Positions 54 through 11,759 of a DNA stretch of 27,301 nucleotides are shown one piece after another. The position numbers and the translations under genes are program-made. The notes under the pieces are model-generated. The model was given only the letters and a program-made list of their open reading frames with translations. It was not told where the DNA came from and did no database searches. The DNA is taken from the IMG/VR virus record IMGVR_UViG_3300021387_000895, positions 1-27,301 of that record, one strand, 5' to 3'. The stretch is from a virus (lineage: Duplodnaviria; Heunggongvirae; Uroviricota; Caudoviricetes). Numbering within the stretch: the first letter of the stretch is position 1; every line of letters starts with the position of its first letter.

Positions 54-704
54 ATGACTTACTATGTCGCAGGCATTCCTTATTCTCCAGATGACATATA
101 CCATCATGGTATAAGAGGTCAGAAGTGGGGATTGAGGCGTTTTCAGAATGATGATGGTTCTCTTACCGAAGAAGGTAAGAGGAGATATGGGACTAGTGAA
201 AATTTCGAAAACTACAAACAGTATAAAGCTGCTAAGTCTAATTATAGATGGGCGAAGGCAGCAAATTACGCTACTCTTCCTACTGGTATTTTGTCTCCAT
301 TTCATTTAGCAACAATGTATAACAAAAATTTGAGAAAAGCTCAGTACAAAGAGGCAAAATCAAATTATGAAGATAGCATGAAGAAGGCTACCGGTAGGGA
401 CCTTGCTAAAGAGAGAAAAGAAAGAGGAAAAGTGGCACTTAAGGCTGCCGGAGTTTTAGCTGGTGCGGCTCTCGCAACTTATGGTGCTTACAAGTTATCG
501 CAAGTAATTGATAAAGGTGACAGCGAATGGCTAAAAACCGGTAGGGATAATGCTGAACTAGCGATTTCGGCAATAGGGAAAGACAAGGTTTCAGCGAGCA
601 TATTCGAGAAGACAGGTAATGCAATAAAGTATTACACCGGCCATACTAATAAAAGGCGAAGCGCATCGATGACGAAACCAGTTGCTTTATTAAATGCTTA
701 TTGA
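54..704 (+). CDS. Conserved-leader (HxGIxGQKWG) family protein, copy 1; putative virion cargo protein
   Basis: N-terminus MTYYVAGIPYSPDDIYHHGIRGQKWGLRRFQNDDGSLTEEGKRRYG; Lys/Arg-rich; hydrophobic segment AAGVLAGAALATYGAYKL. Motif resembles DUF7211 as I recall it (unverified). Function inferred. Confidence 0.8.
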   Translation: MTYYVAGIPYSPDDIYHHGIRGQKWGLRRFQNDDGSLTEEGKRRYGTSENFENYKQYKAAKSNYRWAKAANYATLPTGILSPFHLATMYNKNLRKAQYKEAKSNYEDSMKKATGRDLAKERKERGKVALKAAGVLAGAALATYGAYKLSQVIDKGDSEWLKTGRDNAELAISAIGKDKVSASIFEKTGNAIKYYTGHTNKRRSASMTKPVALLNAY

Positions 705-918
705 TAAGTTTTTTCGCACTGTAAACATGTATTATAGTAGAAGGACACAGAATGTGCGTTGGTTGTTCGGATTTAACACTGACCACTAATTTTTTTGTGT
801 TAAAACTACTTAAAAACTAATCAATAAGCCTCGAGTAACTATATTTGAAGTAGCACTATACAATACTGAAAGTAGAAATTAAGTGCTTAAATAGTCGTCG
901 AAAGTCGAGGTGAAGTTG

Positions 919-1254
919 ATGGCTAAAGAGATTAAAGAATCTGATTACTTAGGTCCTCCAGCTTTAACTCCTGAAGATGCAGAGGATGAACTAGTTTCAA
1001 TGGCTATCAACCTTGCAAGGCAGAGATTAGCTGATGGAACTGCAAGTAATCAACTAATAGCTGAAGTAATAAAAATGGGTACGTCAAAAGAAAGACTTCA
1101 AAAGGAAAAATTGAAGCGTGAGAACGAAATGCTTAAAGCAAAGACTGAAGCTATAAAATCTCAAAAGCATGCTGAAGAATTAGCAGCTAATGCTATTAAG
1201 GCGTTTAGAAGTTATTCGGGCGTTGACGTAGAGGATGATTACTTTGACTATTAA
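919..1254 (+). CDS. Putative terminase small subunit
   Basis: ~111-aa helical/coiled-coil protein (PALTPEDAEDELVSMAINLA...GTASNQL...ENEMLKAKTEA) upstream of the HNH gene and terL. GAGGTGA RBS at 907-913 favours ATG 919 over GTG 910. Function assigned from position and recalled family similarity only. Confidence 0.55.
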   Translation: MAKEIKESDYLGPPALTPEDAEDELVSMAINLARQRLADGTASNQLIAEVIKMGTSKERLQKEKLKRENEMLKAKTEAIKSQKHAEELAANAIKAFRSYSGVDVEDDYFDY

Positions 1255-1663
1255 AAGAAGCTATTCAGAATTAAAAAAACTAAAAACATTTGAGGATAGA
1301 TTTAATTATTTAAAGTTGTCTGCCGTAATAGGAGAAAAGACTTTTGGTAATGAGCGATATTTAAATCAAAGGTTTTATGGATCAAATGAATGGAAAGATT
1401 TTAGGCGTAAAGTTATAATAAGAGATAACGGATGCGATCTAGGTCTTGAAGGATACTCTATTTACGATAAAATGGAGATCCATCATATTAATCCTATAAC
1501 TATGACGGACATTGAGCAATGCAGTGATGCTCTTATGGATATGGAAAACGTTATATGTGTTTCGAGTAAAACACATAAAGCTATTCATTATGGAGATTCT
1601 AGTTCACTCCCTAAAGATCCTATAGTTAGGAAGCCTAACGATATGTGTCCTTGGAGGAACTGA
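1235..1663 (+). CDS. HNH endonuclease (packaging-associated)
   Basis: RDNGCDLG...EIHHINP...ENVICVS..THKAIH metal-finger pattern; adjacent to packaging genes, as for HK97 gp74-type HNH proteins. Confidence 0.85.
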   Translation: MITLTIKRSYSELKKLKTFEDRFNYLKLSAVIGEKTFGNERYLNQRFYGSNEWKDFRRKVIIRDNGCDLGLEGYSIYDKMEIHHINPITMTDIEQCSDALMDMENVICVSSKTHKAIHYGDSSSLPKDPIVRKPNDMCPWRN

Positions 1664-1811
1664 GTGAGGTGAACTCAAAATGACTTACTATGTAGCTGGG
1701 TTACCTTACTCAGCTGAACTCTACCACTATGGTATACAAGGTCAAAAGTGGGGCTTAAGAAGGTTTCAGAATCCGGATGGAACAAGAACTCCTGAAGGTA
1801 AGATAAGGTAT
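1662..1811 (+). repeat. 150-bp direct repeat copy A (RBS + 44 leader codons), partner at 3057-3206
   Basis: Manual alignment: 18 upstream nt identical; 6 mismatches in 132 coding nt, all synonymous third positions. Confidence 0.95.
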
Positions 1812-2153
1812 AAAACTAAAGAAAGAACTAATTGGGAAAATGAAAGACTAAGTACAAAGCAGATTTTGAAGAATACTTCTAAAGAATTCAAATATAGTCA
1901 TCCAATTATGGCTCCGATTTTAAAAGGGATTGGTATTGGAGCTGTTACATATTTATTATCTAGAAAGATTTCATCCAAGGCTTCAGATTTAATTGATTCA
2001 GGTAATAATATTGTTATTGGAGCTGGAGTTGCGTCTGCTATTTTAGGTATTGTTGGTAAGATGTCTGCTTCATATATTATTGGATCTGGAATAGGCGAGG
2101 CTATGAACTCGTATAATGTGATTAAGAATAACGAATATCCTAGTAAGAATTAG
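1680..2153 (+). CDS. Conserved-leader family protein, copy 2
   Basis: MTYYVAGLPYSAELYHYGIQGQKWGLRRFQNPDGTRTPEGKIRY leader; two Gly-rich hydrophobic stretches in the C-terminal half; RBS GAGGTGA. Confidence 0.8.
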   Translation: MTYYVAGLPYSAELYHYGIQGQKWGLRRFQNPDGTRTPEGKIRYKTKERTNWENERLSTKQILKNTSKEFKYSHPIMAPILKGIGIGAVTYLLSRKISSKASDLIDSGNNIVIGAGVASAILGIVGKMSASYIIGSGIGEAMNSYNVIKNNEYPSKN

Positions 2154-2172
2154 AGATGCGAGGTGATTGTGT

Positions 2173-2517
2173 ATGGAAGAAAGTATTCTTAGAACTATTC
2201 AAAGTAAACTCGGACCTGATTCAGACTATGGTGTTTTTACTTCTGATATTCTTATTAGTATTAATAGTGCTATTTCAGTTCTTACTCAGCTTGGGATTGG
2301 ACCAGAAGAAGGATTTAGGATAACTGGAGAAGAAGAAACTTGGTCGCAGCTTGTTGGTGATGCAAAATACCTCGAGATGGTTAAAGATTATATATTCTTC
2401 AAAGTTAAGTTAGCATTTGATCCACCTTCTAATTCTTCATTAGTTACTTTCTATAAACAAGAATGCAATGAACTTGAATGGAGACTAAATGTTGCTGTAG
2501 ATCCAGGAAAGCATTGA
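2173..2517 (+). CDS. Head-tail adaptor/connector protein (gp6/gp15-like)
   Basis: SILRTIQSKLG...DILISINSAISVLTQLGIGP..GF.I...W...VKDYIFFKVKLAFDPP...ELEWRLNV pattern and size typical of phage connectors. GAGGTGA RBS supports ATG 2173. Confidence 0.7.
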   Translation: MEESILRTIQSKLGPDSDYGVFTSDILISINSAISVLTQLGIGPEEGFRITGEEETWSQLVGDAKYLEMVKDYIFFKVKLAFDPPSNSSLVTFYKQECNELEWRLNVAVDPGKH

Positions 2518-2542
2518 CTTTCAAGCATAATGTTGGTATAAT
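2514..2542 (+). promoter_or_regulatory. Sigma70/SigA-type promoter with extended -10
   Basis: TTGACT (2514-2519), 17-bp spacer, TG at 2534-2535, TATAAT (2537-2542). Confidence 0.85.
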
Positions 2543-2571
2543 ATTAACATTACAGTTTGGAGGTAGTTATA

Positions 2572-3003
2572 ATGAAAAGATTAGTTGCTTTAGTTGTAAT
2601 GTTTCTGGTTTTTCAAATAGTTGCTTTCGCTTCTGTAGATATCGATCTTGATTCTTTAAGTGAATACGAATTGTTCGAACTCCAGATGGAAGTACAAGAA
2701 AAGCTTTATGAATACGATCCTTCTGCTGGGTTTATAATGTATCCTGGTGTCAGCATTGTTGGTAAGAATTTTGAAGCAGGATCATATGTTGTTAAAGTTG
2801 TTGAACCGATTGAGAACGAATACGATTTTCCGCCATATATAACTATATGGAAAAATGAAGATGTAATTGGAAGTATTATGCGAGAAGACTTTGTTGATGA
2901 CCCAAGTTTTAGAGAAAAAGATGATGTGTATCAGTGCAATTTAATTGACGGCATGTGTTTTGAATTGAATTATGGAGTTTTTCAATTCATAAAACGAAAA
3001 TAG
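2572..3003 (+). CDS. Moron: acidic exported protein with Sec signal peptide
   Basis: GGAGG RBS at 2559-2563 supports ATG 2572. MKRLVALVVMFLVFQIVAFA-S is an n/h/AxA signal peptide; mature part is D/E-rich; own promoter and terminator. Confidence 0.8.
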   Translation: MKRLVALVVMFLVFQIVAFASVDIDLDSLSEYELFELQMEVQEKLYEYDPSAGFIMYPGVSIVGKNFEAGSYVVKVVEPIENEYDFPPYITIWKNEDVIGSIMREDFVDDPSFREKDDVYQCNLIDGMCFELNYGVFQFIKRK

Positions 3004-3018
3004 AATATGCCGATAATC

Positions 3019-3046
3019 CGCTCCTCAATCGAGGGGCGTTTTTTTT
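3019..3046 (+). terminator. Rho-independent terminator
   Basis: CGCTCCTC-AATC-GAGGGGCG stem-loop (one G-U pair) followed by a T8 run. Confidence 0.9.
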
Positions 3047-3056
3047 ATGTCTTTAC

Positions 3057-3206
3057 GAGTGAGGTGAACTCAAAATGACTTACTACGTAGCTGGGTTACC
3101 TTACTCAGCTGAACTCTACCATTATGGTATACAAGGCCAAAAGTGGGGCTTAAGAAGGTTTCAGAATCCTGATGGGACAAGAACTCCTGAAGGTAAGATT
3201 AGGTAT
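3057..3206 (+). repeat. 150-bp direct repeat copy B, partner at 1662-1811
   Basis: See copy A; encodes an identical 44-aa leader. Confidence 0.95.
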
Positions 3207-3767
3207 AGAGAAAATGGGACTGGAAATTCTGGTTCTGCATCGTCAAATGGTAAAAACGAAAAACTGAAGAAGGCAGCAAAGATAGCGTTAATTACAGCAG
3301 GTACTGCAGCGGCTGCCTATGGTACATACCGTTTGGCTAAGAGTGGAGCTTTGAACGATGTAGCCAGTAAAATAGGCAATACAGCACGTTCTTTATCGAA
3401 CGGAACAAAGAGCAAAATTGTGGATTCGATTAGTAGACATAAAGCAGATAGAGAATTGAATACGGCTCGATCGAAAGAAAATGCTAAAAGAATGAAGGAT
3501 GCAATCAATGCATTTAAAATTCCTGACGATGAGCTTTTGAGTAGAATAGGACGATTAGAAAAAGAAGCTGAATATAGAAAACTTATATTAGAAAGTATTG
3601 AGTATACCCCAAATCCAAAGAATAAAGTATTTGTTGATGCGGGTAAGAAAGTTGCTGGTACTTTTCTTGCTGGTGCTGGTACTTATGCAATTAAAGCTCT
3701 GCTAACAAAGAAATTTAGTCCAAAAGAAGCTGCAGATTATGTTGCTCCGAAACCTAAGAAGAAATAA
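3075..3767 (+). CDS. Conserved-leader family protein, copy 3
   Basis: Leader identical to copy 2 for 44 aa, then unrelated; hydrophobic segments AAKIALITAGTAAAAYGTYRL and VAGTFLAGAGTYAIKALL; basic tail PKPKKK. Confidence 0.8.
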   Translation: MTYYVAGLPYSAELYHYGIQGQKWGLRRFQNPDGTRTPEGKIRYRENGTGNSGSASSNGKNEKLKKAAKIALITAGTAAAAYGTYRLAKSGALNDVASKIGNTARSLSNGTKSKIVDSISRHKADRELNTARSKENAKRMKDAINAFKIPDDELLSRIGRLEKEAEYRKLILESIEYTPNPKNKVFVDAGKKVAGTFLAGAGTYAIKALLTKKFSPKEAADYVAPKPKKK

Positions 3768-3779
3768 AGGAGGCATTCT

Positions 3780-5534
3780 ATGTCTCTTTCAAATACTGCT
3801 ATACCTATTTATTATGGAAGATTTAGAGATGCTGTTTTAAGAGGAGAAATTCCAGTTTGTCAAGAAATCTCGATGGAAATGAATCGTATCGATGATTTGA
3901 TTCGAGACCCAAGGTATTATTACGATGATCAAGCTGTAGAAGGTTTTGTCAAGTATTGTGAGCAAGAACTAACATTGACTGATGGATCAGATCTGCATTT
4001 GCTTGATTCGTTTAAGTTATGGGCTGAGGAGATATTTGGTTGGTATTACTTTGTTGAAAGAAGTGTGTATGAACCGTCTCCAGATGGCCATGGCGGTAAA
4101 TACGTAATAAAAACTGTTAAGAAGAGGCTTGTAAATAAGCAATTTCTTATTGTTGCCCGAGGAGCAGCAAAGTCGATGTATGCATCATGTATACAAAGCT
4201 TTGTTTTAAATATTGATGGATCTACAACTCTTCAGATAACGACTGCTCCAACAATGAAGCAGGCTGAAGAAGTAATGTCTCCTATTAGAACTTCCATTAC
4301 AAGATCTAGAGGTCCATTATTCCAATTTCTTACTGAAGGGTCACTTCAAAATACAACTGGTTCCAAAGCAGATAGAGTTAAATTAGCATCCACCAAAATA
4401 GGTATTCAAAACTTTATTACTGGTTCGCGAATAGAAGTAAGACCGATGTCAATAGATAAATTACAAGGTTTAAGACCAAAGGTATGCTCAGTTGACGAAT
4501 GGCTTTCTGGAGATATTAGGGAAGACGTTATAGGTGCGTTAGAGCAGGGAGCTTCTAAGGGTGGTATTGAGGATTATATAATTCTAGCCACCAGTTCGGA
4601 GGGCACTGTTCGAAATGCAGCCGGTGATGATATTAAAATGGAGCTTATGAAGATACTTCGTGGTGAGTATAAAAATGATCACGTATCTATCTGGTATTAT
4701 AAGCTTGATGATATTAGCGAAGTGGCCAAACCCTATATGTGGGTAAAAGCTAATCCTAATCTTGGTAAGACAGTTTCATATGAGACTTACCAATTGGATG
4801 TCGATCGTATGGAGCATGCTCCAGCAGTTCGAAACGATATTCTTGCTAAAAGATTTGGTATTCCAATGGAAGGTCATAGTTATTTCTTTACATATGAAGA
4901 AACTCTGCCGACAAATAGAAGAAACGACTTTTGGAAAATGCCATGCGCTTTAGGTGCTGATCTTTCCCAGGGTGATGACTTTTGTGCATTTACATTTTTG
5001 TTTCCTCTTAGAGATCAATCATTTGGTGTGAAGACTAGATGCTACATTACTTCTTTAACTCTTAATAGGCTTCCTATGTCTATGAGACTTAAATACGAGG
5101 AATTCATGAAAGAGGGTAGTTTAATCGTTCTTGAAGGAACGGTTTTAGATATTATGGAGGTTTACCAGGATCTCGATAAGTATATTGAAGAGTCTGGATA
5201 TGAAGTATTAGCATTTGGTTATGATCCATACAACGCAAAAGTATTCGTTGATCAATGGGCTTTGGAAAATGGTGATTATGCTATAGAAAAAGTTCCGCAG
5301 GGATCAAAAACTGAATCGGTTCCTCTTGGCGAAATAAAGAATTTAGCAAGTGAGCGCATGCTTTTGTTTGATCAGGAGCTTATGACATTTTGTATGGGAA
5401 ACTGCATAGCACTTGAAGATACAAATGGTAATAGAAAGCTTCTTAAGATGCGTAAGCAAGAGAAGATCGATGCTGTTGCAGCGATGCTTGATGCTTACGT
5501 TGCTTATAAGGCATATAAAGAGGTTTTTGAGTGA
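3780..5534 (+). CDS. terL: Terminase large subunit
   Basis: 584 aa; Walker A-like VARGAAKS, Walker B CSVDEW, TSSEG motif III region, nuclease GADLS and KIDAVAAMLDA. Confidence 0.95.
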   Translation: MSLSNTAIPIYYGRFRDAVLRGEIPVCQEISMEMNRIDDLIRDPRYYYDDQAVEGFVKYCEQELTLTDGSDLHLLDSFKLWAEEIFGWYYFVERSVYEPSPDGHGGKYVIKTVKKRLVNKQFLIVARGAAKSMYASCIQSFVLNIDGSTTLQITTAPTMKQAEEVMSPIRTSITRSRGPLFQFLTEGSLQNTTGSKADRVKLASTKIGIQNFITGSRIEVRPMSIDKLQGLRPKVCSVDEWLSGDIREDVIGALEQGASKGGIEDYIILATSSEGTVRNAAGDDIKMELMKILRGEYKNDHVSIWYYKLDDISEVAKPYMWVKANPNLGKTVSYETYQLDVDRMEHAPAVRNDILAKRFGIPMEGHSYFFTYEETLPTNRRNDFWKMPCALGADLSQGDDFCAFTFLFPLRDQSFGVKTRCYITSLTLNRLPMSMRLKYEEFMKEGSLIVLEGTVLDIMEVYQDLDKYIEESGYEVLAFGYDPYNAKVFVDQWALENGDYAIEKVPQGSKTESVPLGEIKNLASERMLLFDQELMTFCMGNCIALEDTNGNRKLLKMRKQEKIDAVAAMLDAYVAYKAYKEVFE

Positions 5535-5556
5535 TGTTGAGTGAGGTGAATTTAAA

Positions 5557-5979
5557 GTGACTTACTATGTTGTGGGATTGCCTTACTCTTCAGAACTTTT
5601 TCACTTTGGTATAAAAGGTCAGAAGTGGGGATTAAGACGCTTTCAGAATCCAGATGGAACCCTTACACCGGAAGGAAAGTCGAGATATGGAACTGTTGAG
5701 AGCTATAACAAAGCAAAGAATAGATCTAAAGCAGTAAAGATTGCTGTTTCTATTGGAGTTGCTTCCGTTATAGCTGGATTAGCTATATACGGCGGTTTAA
5801 AATTAAAGAACACAAATACTAGTTTTGTGGATTCAGCTTTTAGCAGTAGTGATTCTTTGTCAAACCTATTTGATAAAACGGTATCCGACATTACAGATTT
5901 CTCTTCTATCGATAATGCTAAAACTGCAGAGAAAGAGCTAAAGCGTATGCGATATGAATTGAATCGCAATTTGAGGTGA
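5557..5979 (+). CDS. Conserved-leader family protein, copy 4
   Basis: GTG start after GAGTGAGGTGAA; MTYYVVGLPYSSELFHFGIKGQKWGLRRFQNPDG; TM-like IAVSIGVASVIAGLAIYGGLKL. Confidence 0.8.
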   Translation: MTYYVVGLPYSSELFHFGIKGQKWGLRRFQNPDGTLTPEGKSRYGTVESYNKAKNRSKAVKIAVSIGVASVIAGLAIYGGLKLKNTNTSFVDSAFSSSDSLSNLFDKTVSDITDFSSIDNAKTAEKELKRMRYELNRNLR

Positions 5980-5980
5980 T

Positions 5981-5991
5981 AATCAAAATGG
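5981..5991 (+). repeat. AATCAAAATGG motif copy 1
   Basis: Exact 11-mer also at 9760, 11771 and 26344; this copy overlaps the start codon at 5988. Confidence 0.7.
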
Positions 5992-6596
5992 CATATATGG
6001 TCGCGGGTATCCCGTATTCTTCTGAATTGTATCATTGGGGTATAAAAGGTCAGAAGTGGGGATTAAGGCGTTTTCAGAATGAAGACGGTACTTTAACAGA
6101 AGAAGGTAAAGCTCGATATAGACGAGAGATTAATAAAATGGCATCTAAGGATGCTCAAAGAGTATCTGATGCTAAAGCTGCATATGGAACTGGAGCTGGC
6201 ACAAGACGTAAGCTTCTCAATAAAGAGATTAATCAAAAGCTTAAGAATCCAGATTATAGGAAGGCTTATGAGCAGGCCAGTCAGCATGTTAACGTTCCAA
6301 AGTCTCTAAGGAAAGCCGAATCGTTACACAGGCATGCCGGGACTTTTGAGCGCGGTCAGAGACTTGCTGACAGTGGAAAGAAGGTTTCTAGCAGCATTTT
6401 AAAGGCTGTTGGTGGAGCTGCTTTGACAGTCGGAGGAGCTTATGCCGCAGGGAAATTAAACGTGATGAATGGTGGTAATAAGGCTACTTCGAACGTGATA
6501 TTAGCTATTGGCGGAATATCGGCAGCAACTACACTTGGTAAGGGTGTACGCGATGCTTATCAAGTTAACTATTACGAGCGTAATAAAAAGTTTTAG
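5988..6596 (+). CDS. Conserved-leader family protein, copy 5
   Basis: GAGGTGA RBS at 5973-5979 supports ATG 5988 (MAYMVAGIPYSSELYHWGIKGQKWG); two Gly/Ala hydrophobic stretches near the C-terminus. Confidence 0.8.
   Translation: MAYMVAGIPYSSELYHWGIKGQKWGLRRFQNEDGTLTEEGKARYRREINKMASKDAQRVSDAKAAYGTGAGTRRKLLNKEINQKLKNPDYRKAYEQASQHVNVPKSLRKAESLHRHAGTFERGQRLADSGKKVSSSILKAVGGAALTVGGAYAAGKLNVMNGGNKATSNVILAIGGISAATTLGKGVRDAYQVNYYERNKKF
6069..6121 (+). repeat. 53-bp exact direct repeat copy A, partner at 7226-7278
   Basis: cgttttcagaatgaagacggtactttaacagaagaaggtaaagctcgatatag is present identically at both positions. Confidence 0.95.
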
Positions 6597-6613
6597 ACGG
6601 TGGTGAACTCCAA

Positions 6614-7561
6614 ATGACTTACTATGTCGCAGGTATCCCTTATTCTCCAAATGACATATACCATCATGGTATAAAGGGCCAGAAATGGGGATTAAGGCGT
6701 TTTCAGAATGATGATGGCTCTCTTACCGAAGAAGGTAGGAGGAGATATGGGACCGATAGCCTTGGAACTAATTCAAATAAAAGTCTTAGGCGATTTTTAA
6801 CAAATGACTTTGGCCCTCTTCAGAATAGTAAATTAAGAAATAAAAGAGAAGATCGTCTTAAAAATAAGGTTGATCAATTAAAGCGTGAAGGTAAGGATTC
6901 TACAAAGACTGAACGAAAATACGAAGCCCAGAAGCAAAAGAATATCGACTATGAGAAGTATACTGCTAATACTAGTACAAAGAAACTTATTGCTCAGTCT
7001 TTACTTATGTCTAATTATGGTGCTCGTAAATATAGGGAAGCTAGAGCAAGAGGAGCAGGACGAGTAAGAGCTATGGCTTCAACGGCATTTTTCAATACTC
7101 CTATTGGATTCGCTGCAACCAAACTATCTGAAAAGAAGGAGTATGGCGAATTTGTTCATAGCGATTCTTCTTTTAGTCAAGAGCTTTACCATTGGGGAAT
7201 AAAAGGGCAAAAATGGGGAGTGCGCCGTTTTCAGAATGAAGACGGTACTTTAACAGAAGAAGGTAAAGCTCGATATAGGAATAATCCCGATGCTGCAAAG
7301 AAGTACATTAAAGAAAACTGGATAAACTCTTATAATAAGACAGTAGATAGAATTAATCCAAAGATTAATGAGATTAATAAAAAGTACGAAGGTGTTGATT
7401 TTAATAAAGATAATGATGCTTATGAACGATATAACAAAGAAATGACATCTATGATGGATGAAGTTGCTAACAAAGTATTTGACGAAGATTATGGCGAGAT
7501 ACTAGAAATAAGCGGTCTAGGCAGAGATTGGATGGATAAACACGGCTGGAATGATCTGTGA
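6614..7561 (+). CDS. Conserved-leader family protein, copy 6 (two-unit fusion with two motif copies)
   Basis: N-terminal leader plus a second internal ELYHWGIKGQKWGVRRFQNEDG at nt ~7181, preceded by EFVHSDSSFSQ. Confidence 0.85.
   Translation: MTYYVAGIPYSPNDIYHHGIKGQKWGLRRFQNDDGSLTEEGRRRYGTDSLGTNSNKSLRRFLTNDFGPLQNSKLRNKREDRLKNKVDQLKREGKDSTKTERKYEAQKQKNIDYEKYTANTSTKKLIAQSLLMSNYGARKYREARARGAGRVRAMASTAFFNTPIGFAATKLSEKKEYGEFVHSDSSFSQELYHWGIKGQKWGVRRFQNEDGTLTEEGKARYRNNPDAAKKYIKENWINSYNKTVDRINPKINEINKKYEGVDFNKDNDAYERYNKEMTSMMDEVANKVFDEDYGEILEISGLGRDWMDKHGWNDL
7226..7278 (+). repeat. 53-bp exact direct repeat copy B
   Basis: Identical to 6069-6121. Confidence 0.95.
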
Positions 7562-7578
7562 TAAGTAGGTGATCATGC

Positions 7579-8529
7579 ATGACATACTACGTCGCAGGCA
7601 TTCCTTATTCTCCAAATGACATATACCATCATGGTATAAAGGGCCAGAAATGGGGAGTAAGACGTTACACTAATCCCGATGGTACTTTGACAGAAGAAGG
7701 GAAAAGACGATACGGCACTATTGAAAATTTCAATAGAGCTCAAGAACAGAGAAGACAGAGGATTGACGATAGTAGATGGGCTAGTGCTGCCAGAGGAAAT
7801 GAATTGCTTAATGATCGACAGGCAGTTAAGCGTAAAGCGGCTATTAGTGCAGCCGTGATGATTGGTGGTAGTTTAGTTGCTACTGGTGCTATGGCCGGCC
7901 TTATGAGGAAAGCGAAAGTTGATCCTCAGAAGGCTGCAAAGTATGCTTCAACTGCTACCAATGCTTTAGTAAAGCTTGGTATACTTGGAACAGCTGTGAA
8001 CGCAGCTAGAGATATTCATAATGCTAAGCAAGTTGAAAGACGAGATAAGACTGAAGCATTTAAGAAGAGTAGGACTAGTCAAAGTAAATCTTCAAATGGA
8101 TCTTCTAGTTTAAATAGGTATTCTAATAATAGAAATACGGCAAATGTTAAGGTAAGTGGAAGCAAGTTCAAAACGGTTGCTAAAGTTGGAGCAGGTCTTG
8201 CAGTAGCTGGTGCGGCTGTTTATGGAGCTAAGAAACTGAATGACATTGTCACTAAGGGTAATAATGATTATTTAAATGCTTTGCAGGGCGAGAGACTTTC
8301 AAAGTTATTTGAATCGGCTCAAAAAGATGCTAAGAAAAATAAAATTGATTATTATCTTGGACGAAAAACATCCCAGCAAAGAGATCGCGAAACAAAAAGA
8401 ATTAATGATATGTTAGATTACATGCGTAAAGCATACGATCAAGACTTTGAACGTCAAAAACATTCTAGTTTCATAAATAAGGCTTCTAACGCCATATCCT
8501 ATTATAATAAGGCACGTAAAAAGAAATAA
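7579..8529 (+). CDS. Conserved-leader family protein, copy 7
   Basis: MTYYVAGIPYSPNDIYHHGIKGQKWGVRR leader; three Ala/Gly hydrophobic stretches; very basic; C-terminal similarity to copy 1. Confidence 0.8.
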   Translation: MTYYVAGIPYSPNDIYHHGIKGQKWGVRRYTNPDGTLTEEGKRRYGTIENFNRAQEQRRQRIDDSRWASAARGNELLNDRQAVKRKAAISAAVMIGGSLVATGAMAGLMRKAKVDPQKAAKYASTATNALVKLGILGTAVNAARDIHNAKQVERRDKTEAFKKSRTSQSKSSNGSSSLNRYSNNRNTANVKVSGSKFKTVAKVGAGLAVAGAAVYGAKKLNDIVTKGNNDYLNALQGERLSKLFESAQKDAKKNKIDYYLGRKTSQQRDRETKRINDMLDYMRKAYDQDFERQKHSSFINKASNAISYYNKARKKK

Positions 8530-8541
8530 AGGGTGATCATT

Positions 8542-9882
8542 ATGCCAACAATATTTGAACGTATCCAGCATGGCTGGAACGCATTCAGGGGCAGAGATCG
8601 CCCCGATTTTCAGAACTATGGGTCTGGAACTTATAATCGACCAGATAGAAAGCGACTACGATCTGGTAATGAAAGAACTATCATTACAGCTATTTACAAC
8701 CGAATAGCTATGGATGTCGCGGCTAACAAGATTGAGCACGTTAGAGTGGATGAGAACGACATCTATCTTGAAACTGTCAAAGATTATCTTAATGATTGTC
8801 TTACAGTTGAAGCCAATATCGATCAGACTTCAAGAGCTTTCTTCCAAGATGTAGTAATTTCCATGTTTGATGAAGGATGTGTAGCTATAGTTCCTACTGA
8901 GGCTACTGTTGATCCTTCTAAATCATCTTCCTTTATTATTCAAAGCATGAGGGTTGGTAAAATAGTTCAATGGTATCCACGACATGTCAAGGTTGAAGTA
9001 TATGATGATTTAACAGGTCATATTAAGCAACTTACATACAGTAAGAGCGTTGTAGCCATTATTGAAAATCCTTTTTATGCGGTTATGAACGAACCGAATT
9101 CAATACTTCAACGATTAATTAGAAAATTAAACATGCTCGATGCTGTGGACGAACAGGCAAGTGCTGGTAAGCTGGATCTGATCATTCAGCTCCCATATGT
9201 CATCAAGTCTCAAGCAAGGCGAGAGCAGGCTGAAAATAGAAGAAAAGACATTGAACATCAGCTATCTGGTACAAAATACGGTATTGCTTATACCGATGGT
9301 ACCGAAAGAATTACTCAGTTAAATCGACCCGTTGAAAACAATTTAATGGGTCAGATTGAGTATCTTATGAATACTCTTTATTCACAGCTTGGTATAACTC
9401 CTGAGATACTCAATGGCACGGCAAATGAAGCTACGATGCTTAATTACAATAGTCGAACCATTGAGCCTATTTTATGTGCAATTGTTGATGAAATGAAACG
9501 TAAGTTCCTCACAAAGACTGCACGGACTCAGGGGCATTCCATAATATTCAGCAGTGAGCCGTTCAAGCTCGTTCCTGCGGGTAAGATCGCTGACATTGCT
9601 GAGAAGTTCGTTGCGAATGAGATTCTCACTCCTAACGAGCTTCGTTCTATTGCTGGTTTTAAGCCTTCGAAGGATTCAAGTGCAAACGAGCTTCGAAATC
9701 GTAGACTTAATGAGCCAGCAGAGGAGCAACCTATGCCACAAGGCGATGAGGTTGATCCAAATCAAAATGGCAGTTATGAAGATGATGGATCTTATGAGCA
9801 AGGTCAAGGCGATTCAGACAATATAGCGGATATGTCGATGACTGAGTTTAGTAGGATTGCATCTAATTCTAATACTGCGTAA
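8542..9882 (+). CDS. Portal protein
   Basis: ~446 aa between terL and the protease-capsid gene; AIYNRIAMDVA, LIIQLPY, QLGITPEIL.GTANEATMLNY..RTIEP, LTPNELRS motifs typical of HK97-type portals; acidic C-terminal tail. ATG 8542 preferred over GTG 8533 on RBS spacing. Confidence 0.92.
   Translation: MPTIFERIQHGWNAFRGRDRPDFQNYGSGTYNRPDRKRLRSGNERTIITAIYNRIAMDVAANKIEHVRVDENDIYLETVKDYLNDCLTVEANIDQTSRAFFQDVVISMFDEGCVAIVPTEATVDPSKSSSFIIQSMRVGKIVQWYPRHVKVEVYDDLTGHIKQLTYSKSVVAIIENPFYAVMNEPNSILQRLIRKLNMLDAVDEQASAGKLDLIIQLPYVIKSQARREQAENRRKDIEHQLSGTKYGIAYTDGTERITQLNRPVENNLMGQIEYLMNTLYSQLGITPEILNGTANEATMLNYNSRTIEPILCAIVDEMKRKFLTKTARTQGHSIIFSSEPFKLVPAGKIADIAEKFVANEILTPNELRSIAGFKPSKDSSANELRNRRLNEPAEEQPMPQGDEVDPNQNGSYEDDGSYEQGQGDSDNIADMSMTEFSRIASNSNTA
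9759..9774 (+). repeat. AATCAAAATGG motif copy 2 (16-bp AAATCAAAATGGCAGT)
   Basis: Within the portal 3' end, ~130 bp before the capsid gene; 16 bp identical to 26343-26358. Confidence 0.7.
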
Positions 9883-9902: not shown

Positions 9903-11759
9903 ATGGACGAAAAGTTTGACTTTGGCGGATACGCTACTAAGAATGATCTTCTTTGTTCTGATGGTCGAACGATTCGAAAGGATGCCTTTAAGGACTGTGA
10001 TGGCGCTAGCGTACCATTAGTTTGGCAGCATAGCCATGGTAAGCCTAGCGACGTTCTTGGTCACGCATTACTTGAAAATCGTGATGATGGCGTGTACGCA
10101 TATGGAGTCTTTAACGATACTGATTCTGGCAAGAATGCTAAGGAACTTGTCAGGCATCGCGACGTTAAGGCTCTTTCTATTTATGCAAATCAGCTTGTTC
10201 AGAAGGGGTCTGATGTTCTTCACGGTATGATTCGTGAAGTTAGTTTGTGCCTTGCTGGTGCTAATCCGGGTGCTATGATTGAAGACCTTTCTTTCGAACA
10301 TTTTGACGATGAGAACACTGAATTCGATGCGATGATCTATAACGGCGACAACATCGAGCTTGTTCATTCTGATGAGCCCAAGGAGTTAATTAAAGAGATG
10401 CCTGTGATCGAGCATGCGGATGAGCCTAAGGAAGAGCCTAAAGAGGCTCCTAAGGAGGAAAAAGAAATGGCTAATGAGCAGAATAACGAAAAGACTGTAA
10501 AGGATGTTTACGAGAGCCTGACTGATGAACAGAAGCAGGTTGTCAATTATATGATCGGTTATGCCGTTGAGCAGGCCAAGGGCGGCGATGCTTCCGGCGA
10601 AGAGGAGGACGAGAAAGAAATGAAGCAGAATGCGTTTTATGGTGAGGAGAACTTCCTGAGCCACGCGGAAATCACCGAGGCTATGGCCGATGTTATTAAG
10701 GACGGCAAGAAGTATGGTACTCTGAAGGATTCTCTGGAGCATCATATGGAAGAGGGTGTCCTGGCCCATGCCCAAATCGATACTACTGATATGGAGCTGC
10801 CTACTCTGACCAATCAGCAGTATAAGACTCAGTTTGGTTATGGTATTAACTCCCCTGAGTTCCTGTTCCCGGAAGCTCGTACCCTGTCTAATGTGCCTGA
10901 GTTTATCGGCCGCAACACTGACTGGGTGAAGGTTGTTATGAATGGTGTTCATCGTACCCCCTTCAGCCGTCTGAAGTCTCTGTTTGCTAACATCACTGAG
11001 GACGAGGCTCGTGCGAAGGGCTACATCAAGGGCAATATGAAGAAGAATGAGTTCTTCAGCCTGATGAAGCGTACCACAGTTCCTCAGACAGTTTATAAGA
11101 AGCAGAAGATGGATCGTGATGACATCACTGATATTACCGATTTCGATGTTGTCGCCTGGATCAAGGGCGAGATGCGCGTAATGCTTGATGAGGAAATTGC
11201 TCGTGCTATCCTGATTGGCGATGATCGTCTTGTTAATGATGACGACAAGATCTCCGAGGAGCACATCCGTCCTATCGTCAGCGATGCTCCGCTGTTCACT
11301 ATCAAGACTATTGTCACTCGCGGTGCTGATGAGTTTGCGACTGCTAAGAATTTCATGCGTTCTGCGATCCGTGCTCGTAAGGACTACAAGGGCTCCGGCA
11401 ATCCGACTCTGTTTACCACTGAGGATGTTCTGACTTCTATGCTGCTGATTGAGGATGGCATTGGCCATTACATCTATAAGAGTGAGTCTGAGCTGGCCAC
11501 TGCTCTGCGTGTCTCTAACATTGTGACTGTTCCTGTTATGGAAGGCTACAAGGATACCACTGGTAATGATCTGATGGGTGTTATTGTTAACCTGAAGGAC
11601 TATAATGTTGGCGCTGATAAGGGTGGCGAAGTCAATATGTTCGATGACTTCAATATCGATTACAACCAGTACATCTATCTGATTGAGACCAGGTGTTCTG
11701 GTGCTCTGATTAAGCCTTACTCTGCTATCGCCCTGTTTGCTGCTAAGGCTGGTGCCTAA
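9903..11759 (+). CDS. Prohead protease-scaffold-major capsid protein fusion
   Basis: N-terminal ~130 aa resembles HK97-type prohead proteases (FGGYAT, VPLVWQH, GHA, ALSIYAN, REVSLCLAGANPGA); acidic linker; C-terminal HK97-fold capsid-like region (EEIARAILIGD, FDDFNIDYNQYIYLIETRCSGAL); strong codon bias. Confidence 0.9.
   Translation: MDEKFDFGGYATKNDLLCSDGRTIRKDAFKDCDGASVPLVWQHSHGKPSDVLGHALLENRDDGVYAYGVFNDTDSGKNAKELVRHRDVKALSIYANQLVQKGSDVLHGMIREVSLCLAGANPGAMIEDLSFEHFDDENTEFDAMIYNGDNIELVHSDEPKELIKEMPVIEHADEPKEEPKEAPKEEKEMANEQNNEKTVKDVYESLTDEQKQVVNYMIGYAVEQAKGGDASGEEEDEKEMKQNAFYGEENFLSHAEITEAMADVIKDGKKYGTLKDSLEHHMEEGVLAHAQIDTTDMELPTLTNQQYKTQFGYGINSPEFLFPEARTLSNVPEFIGRNTDWVKVVMNGVHRTPFSRLKSLFANITEDEARAKGYIKGNMKKNEFFSLMKRTTVPQTVYKKQKMDRDDITDITDFDVVAWIKGEMRVMLDEEIARAILIGDDRLVNDDDKISEEHIRPIVSDAPLFTIKTIVTRGADEFATAKNFMRSAIRARKDYKGSGNPTLFTTEDVLTSMLLIEDGIGHYIYKSESELATALRVSNIVTVPVMEGYKDTTGNDLMGVIVNLKDYNVGADKGGEVNMFDDFNIDYNQYIYLIETRCSGALIKPYSAIALFAAKAGA

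Follow-up and report, generated by a model that had tools for sequence, protein, structure and literature searches.

The internal proteins IPI-III and Alt of phage T4 bear a short capsid-targeting sequence (CTS); they enter the prohead core, undergo processing by the prohead protease and are injected along with the DNA (PMC9026906). In the MuF toxins, Tox-PL1 and other toxins are carried on a head-packaged domain that is encoded beside terminase and portal (PMC3482391). In the phiKZ-like phage SPN3US, several paralogous internal head proteins have a short motif in common with the capsid protein, and it is there that the prohead protease processes them; phiKZ-like phages also package an RNA polymerase for early transcription (PMC10052503). 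Here we describe the first 27.3 kb (27,301 nucleotides; hereafter the window) of IMG/VR record IMGVR_UViG_3300021387_000895, a 94.5-kb viral contig rated complete and belonging to a gut phage, in which seven genes share an N-terminal module that is Pfam DUF7211 (PF23847). The explanation that we favour, with little more than even confidence and judging from the sequences, is that these seven genes encode internal head proteins, taken into the capsid as cargo by means of the DUF7211 module acting as a tag.

The likeness to the T4 CTS is one of layout: a short N-terminal peptide is common to otherwise different basic proteins, and the protease is of the same fold class. The module begins at residue 1, or no more than a few residues from it, in the seven genes and in nearly all of the 149 relatives described below. 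The same route is proposed here for the DUF7211 proteins. The two peptides have no sequence similarity, the DUF7211 module measures about 45 residues as against 10-19 in T4, it recurs inside multi-unit proteins, and its candidate cleavage site (after His) lies ahead of the tag and not behind it, the tag being probably retained. As in the MuF polymorphic toxins (PMC3482391, PMC12226406), a constant N-terminal domain is joined to a variable C-terminal toxin or enzyme in a head-module gene, for DUF7211 in relatives; Tox-PL1 is found on both carriers, and both are encoded next to terminase and portal. The carrier domains are nevertheless unrelated, and MuF (PF04233) has no match at E<=1 in the whole 94.5-kb genome. 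Unlike with MuF, a phage may have 1-8 or more DUF7211 genes, and the module also recurs within proteins; the majority of the tails do not belong to known toxins, and the window shows no immunity genes. With the ejection proteins of the phiKZ-like phages the DUF7211 proteins have in common that they are paralogous and that their candidate protease motif is also that of the capsid protein. The lineage is a different one, however, and in the phiKZ-like phages the motif ends in Glu rather than His, long propeptides are removed and there is no common short tag. With no sequence kinship to the CTS, a candidate site ahead of the tag and a genome that lacks a MuF domain, the DUF7211 system belongs to neither the T4 CTS proteins nor the MuF toxins. 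Its closest formal family is Pfam DUF7211 itself, together with PHROGs 32444, 7021, 6291 and 35934 and ORF7 of Lactococcus phage 1706, all of which hold the same module by profile match. Pfam models only a 25-residue core and assigns it no function, and a literature search for publications naming DUF7211 or its motif strings gave nothing relevant.

The DUF7211 module and its copies

Seven open reading frames (ORFs) between positions 54 and 8529, all on the + strand and summing to 4,749 nucleotides of the first 8.5 kb, begin with the leader consensus M-(T/A)-Y-(Y/M)-V-(A/V)-G-(I/L)-P-Y-S ... H-x-G-I-x-G-Q-K-W-G-(L/V)-R-R ... D-G ... T-x-E-G ... R-Y. An alignment of the seven N-termini has 25 invariant columns within the first 45 residues. 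An eighth copy of the module is internal, at residues ~178-226 of the protein encoded by gene 6614 (6614..7561, + strand, 315 residues; genes are named here by their start positions), a two-unit protein whose first leader occupies residues 1-47. When a profile of the module (46 positions) was searched against these proteins, each of the eight copies scored 84-94 bits, with domain E-values of 1e-25 to 1e-28; in the six frames of the whole 94.5-kb genome the same profile found no further copies.

An earlier note on this DNA, written from the letters without database searches, had listed the seven ORFs and the second copy in 6614, and all were recovered in place and on the + strand. The shared leader of about 45 residues that it described proves to be a strongly conserved module on unrelated tails, and its likening of the core motif to DUF7211 was correct, in that the 25-position PF23847 model matches all seven proteins. 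The gathering score of that model (27 bits) is passed at the level of the whole protein only by the two-copy 6614 protein, at 45.6 bits. In a six-frame search, single copies at 7175-7228 (31.2 bits) and 7621-7668 (27.9 bits) lie above the gathering score, and the other five copies, at 16.8-24.4 bits, fall below it. Among the neighbours named in the note, the HNH gene, the adaptor (the connector, PF24829), terL and portal stand; its 'terS' at 910-1254 is unverified, as it matches an unnamed PHROG only and the label is positional.

A His motif common to module junctions and the capsid linker

An unbiased motif search, allowing one site per sequence, covered the 36 residues that precede each of 189 internal modules and yielded [LIAMV]-[KR]-H(74%)/Q-[S/D/A]-[D/A/E]-[I/F/L], at a variable distance from the internal module. 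Within 40 residues upstream, 82 of 191 internal modules have the strict form, hydrophobic-x-H-[SDA]-[DAE]; there it reaches a density of 1.08 per 100 residues, 31 times the 0.035 measured over the remainder of these proteins. The stretch that follows the His resembles the one that follows the start Met (H-T-S-I-G-G-T-M-Y-I-E-G-N-T-L and M-S-G-G-A-Y-I-E-G-N-T-L, respectively), so that a cut after His would leave the internal unit with a normal-looking N-terminus.

Only two of the window's 29 proteins contain the strict motif. One is the 6614 protein, where F-V-H-S-D (7151..7165, + strand; residues 180-184) stands directly ahead of the internal leader as a candidate head-protease site. The other is a fusion of an S78 prohead protease, an acidic linker and an HK97-type capsid protein (9903..11759, + strand), whose linker contains L-V-H-S-D (residue 153), I-E-H-A-D (residue 169) and L-S-H-A-E (residue 252). 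In 51 aligned protease-capsid fusions the motif is confined to two domain borders (residues 120-180 and 220-300 in the numbering of the window's protein) and is almost never found inside the protease or capsid folds. All 51 carry acidic linkers (residues about 120-305) with some six hydrophobic-x-His sites each; of the 329 linker His residues, 87% have L/I/M/V at -2, 80% have S/A/G/N at +1 and 69% have D/E/A at +2.

The related motif [LIVM]-x-H-[SAG]-[DE] was also counted across 77 IMG/VR loci of one lineage. Its density per 100 residues is 0.586 in the capsid fusion and 0.40 ahead of internal modules, compared to 0.005 in the rest of the DUF7211 proteins and 0.012 in other ORFs, and it does not occur once in the ~82,000 residues of TerL, portal, connector and tape measure. 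The motif is enriched, by 30-100 times over background, in the protease-capsid linker and in the junctions ahead of internal modules.

Prohead proteases of the assemblin fold typically recognise a hydrophobic P3, a fixed P1 and a small P1-prime residue, as in the L/I-x-E of T4. For the phiKZ-like prohead protease the motif is S/A/G-x-E (PMC10052503). A motif that is common to the capsid linker and the DUF7211 junctions points to processing by the head protease, and such processing would place the multi-unit DUF7211 proteins inside the prohead. We therefore infer that the protease of this lineage cuts after His and that the multi-unit DUF7211 proteins are among its substrates; the acidic linker is a candidate His-specific maturation code of an S78-class prohead protease. 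Since the candidate site lies upstream of the internal leader, in the place of the start Met, and no conserved candidate site was found downstream of the tag, the tag probably stays on the mature protein.

Relatives, gene context and fused domains

The leader profile was searched, as the earlier note had proposed, for copy number, gene context and cargo, the unit of the search being clusters represented at 50% identity. It matches 34,920 clusters at E<=1e-3 and 23,077 at E<=1e-10. The 149 best relatives (the 150th listed match is the window's own 6614 protein) have 2-5 modules each, in proteins of up to 1,569 residues; in nearly all, the first module lies at residue 1 or close to it, and later ones follow at intervals of 100-600 residues. 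Judged by their modules, the units that are fused in these relatives appear as separate genes in the window. Some multi-unit proteins end in a bare module (P0138, P0151, P0179 and P0215), and in one related locus a 35-residue gene ahead of TerL (L010:594-701) consists of the DUF7211 module alone; from these two arrangements it is possible that the module has a role of its own besides labelling a tail.

The slots in which these genes lie are those of the head genes. Where they are on the fetched stretch, the core genes of the 77 loci form one structural module (connector, TerL, portal, protease-capsid fusion, DUF7253 and tape measure), and the DUF7211 genes are co-oriented in all 77. Nearly all of them lie in the connector-terL-portal block. 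In the window this block is bordered on the left by the connector gene (PF24829; 2167..2517, + strand) and on the right by the portal gene (8533..9882, + strand), and TerL (3780..5534, + strand) has DUF7211 genes on both sides. Copy number was taken from the 40 distinct loci with a complete interval; there are 1-8 DUF7211 genes per complete slot (median 3), making up 60% of the non-core ORFs there, and the seven genes of the window are at the high end of this range. A different placement is seen in one locus (L010:8590-10999), where two DUF7211 genes lie between the tail-chaperone region and the tape measure, beside an Amidase_3 gene; the tag is thus not strictly confined to the terminase-portal slots. 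One of those two tails has an N-C/H papain-like signature resembling the Tox-PL1 fusions, which Pfam did not confirm.

The tails of the relatives are varied. Few of those on the 149 relatives are recognised by Pfam, namely GNAT (up to six), Tox-PL1/Gln_amidase, a papain-fold toxin (four), CW_7 (two), and a sigma-70/helix-turn-helix domain, a tape-measure piece and a Gly-zipper (one each). Further GNAT and Tox-PL1 fusions are found among single-unit relatives. In a relative of 252 residues (P0037) the GNAT domain lies between two DUF7211 modules, the second of which is preceded by the junction motif M-E-H-S-D. In a wider sample a hydrophobic segment is present in 35% of units and absent from 65%.

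Cultured phages also carry the module. In Faecalibacterium phage FP_oengus the DUF7211 protein gp69 is encoded directly ahead of the portal gene, and Rhodococcus phage ReqiPepy6 has the same layout with four DUF7211 proteins (gp013, gp015, gp016 and gp017). ORF7 of Lactococcus phage 1706, positioned before TerL, contains two copies and scores 41.8 bits against the gathering score of 27. These phages belong to a cross-phylum group with shared structural and replication blocks and an odd RNA polymerase (bioRxiv 10.1101/842583). In bacterial assemblies the tag is found mostly in Clostridia (Lachnospiraceae, Oscillospiraceae, Faecalibacterium and Clostridium leptum DSM 753), in some cases on contigs of at least 200 kb, which suggests that temperate relatives exist.

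Tails and exchange at the leader boundary

The C-terminal parts of the seven proteins are all basic (isoelectric point, pI, 9.5-10.3) and show no significant similarity to each other (BLAST E > 0.02). Five of the seven tails share a Gly/Ala-rich hydrophobic helix ending in Y-G-x-(Y/K)-(K/R)-L, and six of the proteins have one or more hydrophobic segments of 19 residues with a Kyte-Doolittle mean of at least 1.2. Gene 54 (54..704, + strand; 216 residues, pI 9.8) has its leader at residues 1-47 and an Ala/Gly-rich helix at residues 125-148. In gene 1680 (1680..2153, + strand; 157 residues) the leader is followed by hydrophobic stretches at residues ~76-94 and 104-138. The strongest hydrophobic helix (residues 59-77, Kyte-Doolittle mean 2.17) is that of gene 5557 (5557..5979, + strand; 140 residues), which has a GTG start. 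Gene 5988 (5988..6596, + strand; 202 residues, pI 10.2) also matches phrog_6291, and gene 7579 (7579..8529, + strand; 316 residues, pI 10.3) has hydrophobic stretches at residues 87-105 and 197-217. Gene 3075 (3075..3767, + strand; 230 residues, phrog_32444) belongs to a family conserved over its full length, with ~30 orthologues at 37-62% identity, and its tail is thus not a free variable. Look-ups in the ESM Atlas with two of the tails gave no usable match.

At the DNA level the leaders of genes 54 and 6614 are 92% identical (83% at third codon positions), those of 1680 and 3075 are 94% identical (86% at third positions) and those of 6614 and 7579 are 81% identical. In each of these pairs the identity drops to random (~25%) at nucleotides 130-150, which is the end of the leader. 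Most other pairs of leaders keep the peptide with a third-position identity of only 33-57%, as would be expected from selection on the leader peptide. There have thus been recent exchanges bounded by the leader, on top of long-term selection for the peptide, and the swappable cargo that had been proposed for this family is supported by the collapse of identity exactly at the leader end. Gene conversion at the DNA level was also considered as the sole cause of leader conservation, and is ruled out by the low third-position identity of most pairs.

Close to the C-terminus of the 7579 protein (window 8440-8526), 20 residues ahead of the stop, is the sequence R-Q-K-H-S-S-F, which is like the junction motif. 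It could be the relic of a lost downstream unit.

A proposed route and the alternatives to it

From the module, its copy number and slots, the recombination break and the distribution of the His motif, we infer a route of cleavage, packaging, ejection and function as follows. The DUF7211 module, a short and basic peptide, would dock each protein on a component inside the assembling prohead; at a guess, this could be the acidic protease-scaffold linker within the capsid fusion, or else the protease. Fused units, such as those of gene 6614 and of relatives with up to five units, would be cut after the His of hydrophobic-x-His-(Ser/Ala/Gly), the same site that studs the linker of the capsid protein, and each released unit would start just ahead of its tag and keep it. 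After DNA packaging the basic proteins would stay with the DNA and would leave with it at infection. The Gly/Ala-rich hydrophobic helices or, in relatives, the cell-wall, papain-like and GNAT domains would then exert their action at the envelope or within the newly infected host.

This route differs in one respect from that of the earlier note, which had the leader removed by the protease as in T4: the candidate site lies ahead of the internal leaders and none is conserved downstream. The residence in the capsid that the note proposed has, leader removal aside, indirect support in the fixed head-gene slots across the lineage, in the annotation of phage 1706 ORF7 as 'structural protein' and in a candidate protease site common with the capsid protein. 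Toxin-like and enzyme domains, which could belong to the diverse effectors that it proposed, are recognised in relatives and not in this window's tails. Taken as a whole, the reading given there keeps the module, its identity as DUF7211, the swapping and the toxin or enzyme tails of relatives, and loses the removal of the leader.

Several points weigh against capsid cargo. Only 43% of the internal modules carry the strict motif, and it is possible that the His motif is a structural part of the module instead of a cleavage site. The seven tails of the window gave no recognised domain of an enzyme or a toxin. ORF7 of phage 1706 is annotated as 'structural protein' in its authors' GenBank record, but the experimental basis of that annotation is unconfirmed. 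Structure prediction did not provide a docking surface either. The 3075 protein was modelled by AlphaFold2 with a mean predicted local distance difference test (pLDDT) score of 48 alone and 57.5 with a 38-sequence alignment; with that alignment its tail forms long helices at moderate confidence, and the tag has no confident fold (pLDDT 41-67), so that a binding surface cannot be named. On these models the tag would be a short motif, linear or hairpin, that depends on a partner. Prediction of a complex between a 60-residue leader and the protease-capsid fusion scored 0.00 and gives no verdict, and sequence searches of the PDB found no solved structure containing the tag or the capsid fusion.

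Finally, the hydrophobic helices behind a basic N-terminus would equally fit ordinary late membrane proteins, and this leads to the alternative that survives best, although we consider it unlikely. The proteins would be expressed late and remain unpackaged in the membrane or envelope, with the basic DUF7211 end in the cytoplasm, the helix as an anchor and the tail toward the wall, and within the producing cell they would serve to exclude superinfecting phages, to time lysis or to remodel the wall. The 19-residue segments of six of the seven proteins, with the high mean of gene 5557, are consistent with this, as is the hydrophobic segment in 35% of units of the wider sample; the remaining 65% of units, which have none, are not. 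The CW_7, Gly-zipper and papain-like domains of relatives could act on the wall, and the gene set is variable and moron-like. However, a membrane location leaves unexplained why the junction motif is that of the capsid processing region and is almost absent from ~180,000 residues of other proteins, why the genes hold a fixed place among the packaging genes in phages of both Firmicutes and Actinobacteria, and why phage 1706 ORF7 bears its 'structural protein' label.

Less likely still is that the proteins are packaged but purely structural, as basic DNA-condensing or scaffold-like head fillers that offset the charge of the DNA or set how densely the genome is packed and have no effector role after ejection. 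The copy number of 1-8 genes and the tails vary widely among close relatives, which is unusual for structural parts, and relatives put Tox-PL1, GNAT and cell-wall-binding domains on the same tag. The window taken by itself is kinder to this possibility: all seven proteins are basic with predicted long helices, their genes adjoin terminase and portal, recognised enzyme domains are missing, and the phage is without a separate scaffold gene. It is very improbable that the genes encode polymorphic toxins for inter-bacterial competition, following the MuF-toxin pattern with another head-binding domain and with an immunity gene each, since no toxin domain can be recognised in the tails of the window, the genes follow closely on one another without small downstream immunity-like ORFs and the tail of gene 3075 is a conserved family rather than a polymorphic tip, even though relatives join the tag to Tox-PL1 and GNAT, Tox-PL1-MuF fusions occur in prophage head modules (PMC3482391), leader-bounded recombination resembles the swapping of toxin cassettes and the relatives on contigs of at least 200 kb in Clostridia genomes suggest prophages.

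The RNA polymerase-like gene and a wider reading

An RNA-polymerase-like gene (phrog_4291, 965 residues) lies outside the window, at 90365-93262 of the genome (L167:566-3463); its family numbers 3,824 clusters. Its product begins M-L-Y-D-E-Y-G-I-Y ... L-S-H-Y-G-T-P-R-H-S-G-R-Y-P-W-G-S-G. This N-terminus has no match to the module profile or to PF23847, and as a diverged DUF7211 it was aligned by hhalign over 12 columns only, with a probability of 2.6%; homology is not shown. In 20 of 27 relatives with a long N-terminus, hydrophobic-x-His-(S/G/A) is found 18-24 residues ahead of H-Y-G, and most of the 86 short forms start with a Met 19-23 residues ahead of it, mostly 21-22. The His of the long forms is therefore in the place of the Met, which suggests, as a lead only, that the polymerase has a removable propeptide, is a substrate of the head protease and may hence be a virion protein.

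A wider reading of the DUF7211 genes as capsid cargo, which is doubtful and is put forward tentatively, would take in this polymerase. DUF7211 would be the loading tag of a new protein-delivery system in a very large lineage of phages that infect Gram-positive bacteria, including Lactococcus 1706, Faecalibacterium FP_oengus and Streptomyces and Rhodococcus phages. The invariant Leu-x-His-(aromatic)-Gly core of the tag would be an uncleavable look-alike of the His-specific site that docks cargo on the protease-scaffold arm, and at true Leu-x-His-Ser sites, cut between His and Ser, multi-unit precursors and the RNA polymerase propeptide would be turned into injected passengers. If the capsid-cargo reading is right, ~35,000 uncharacterised phage protein clusters would gain a single logic of tag, protease code and variable passenger, which would help in cataloguing the proteins that these phages deliver into gut Clostridia, lactococci and actinomycetes. 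The reading would also define the specificity of a His-specific head protease, of which we know no example, and foreign proteins could be brought into phage heads on a short peptide. Should the reading be wrong, the DUF7211 family is still among the largest unexplained features of head-gene modules.

Neighbouring genes

The region gave no match to cultured phages by megablast. At the protein level, TerL shows ~74% full-length identity (tblastn) to TerL of Streptomyces BI-cluster phages, in a window of 37% G+C, and this fits the Actinobacteria-Firmicutes phage supercluster (10.1101/842583).

Promoters and terminators were scanned for over positions 1-10 kb, and overall the matches did not exceed chance. 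An ORF at 2557-3003 is framed by the region's two highest-scoring sigma-70-like promoter matches, at 2514-2542 (with a TG extension) and 2544-2573 (11/12 each), and by a strong hairpin with a T-run terminator at 3019-3038. Its 148-residue product begins like a signal peptide and matches nothing in Pfam or PHROG. The stretch 2514-3048 resembles an independent moron that has been inserted behind the connector gene and ahead of a DUF7211 gene.

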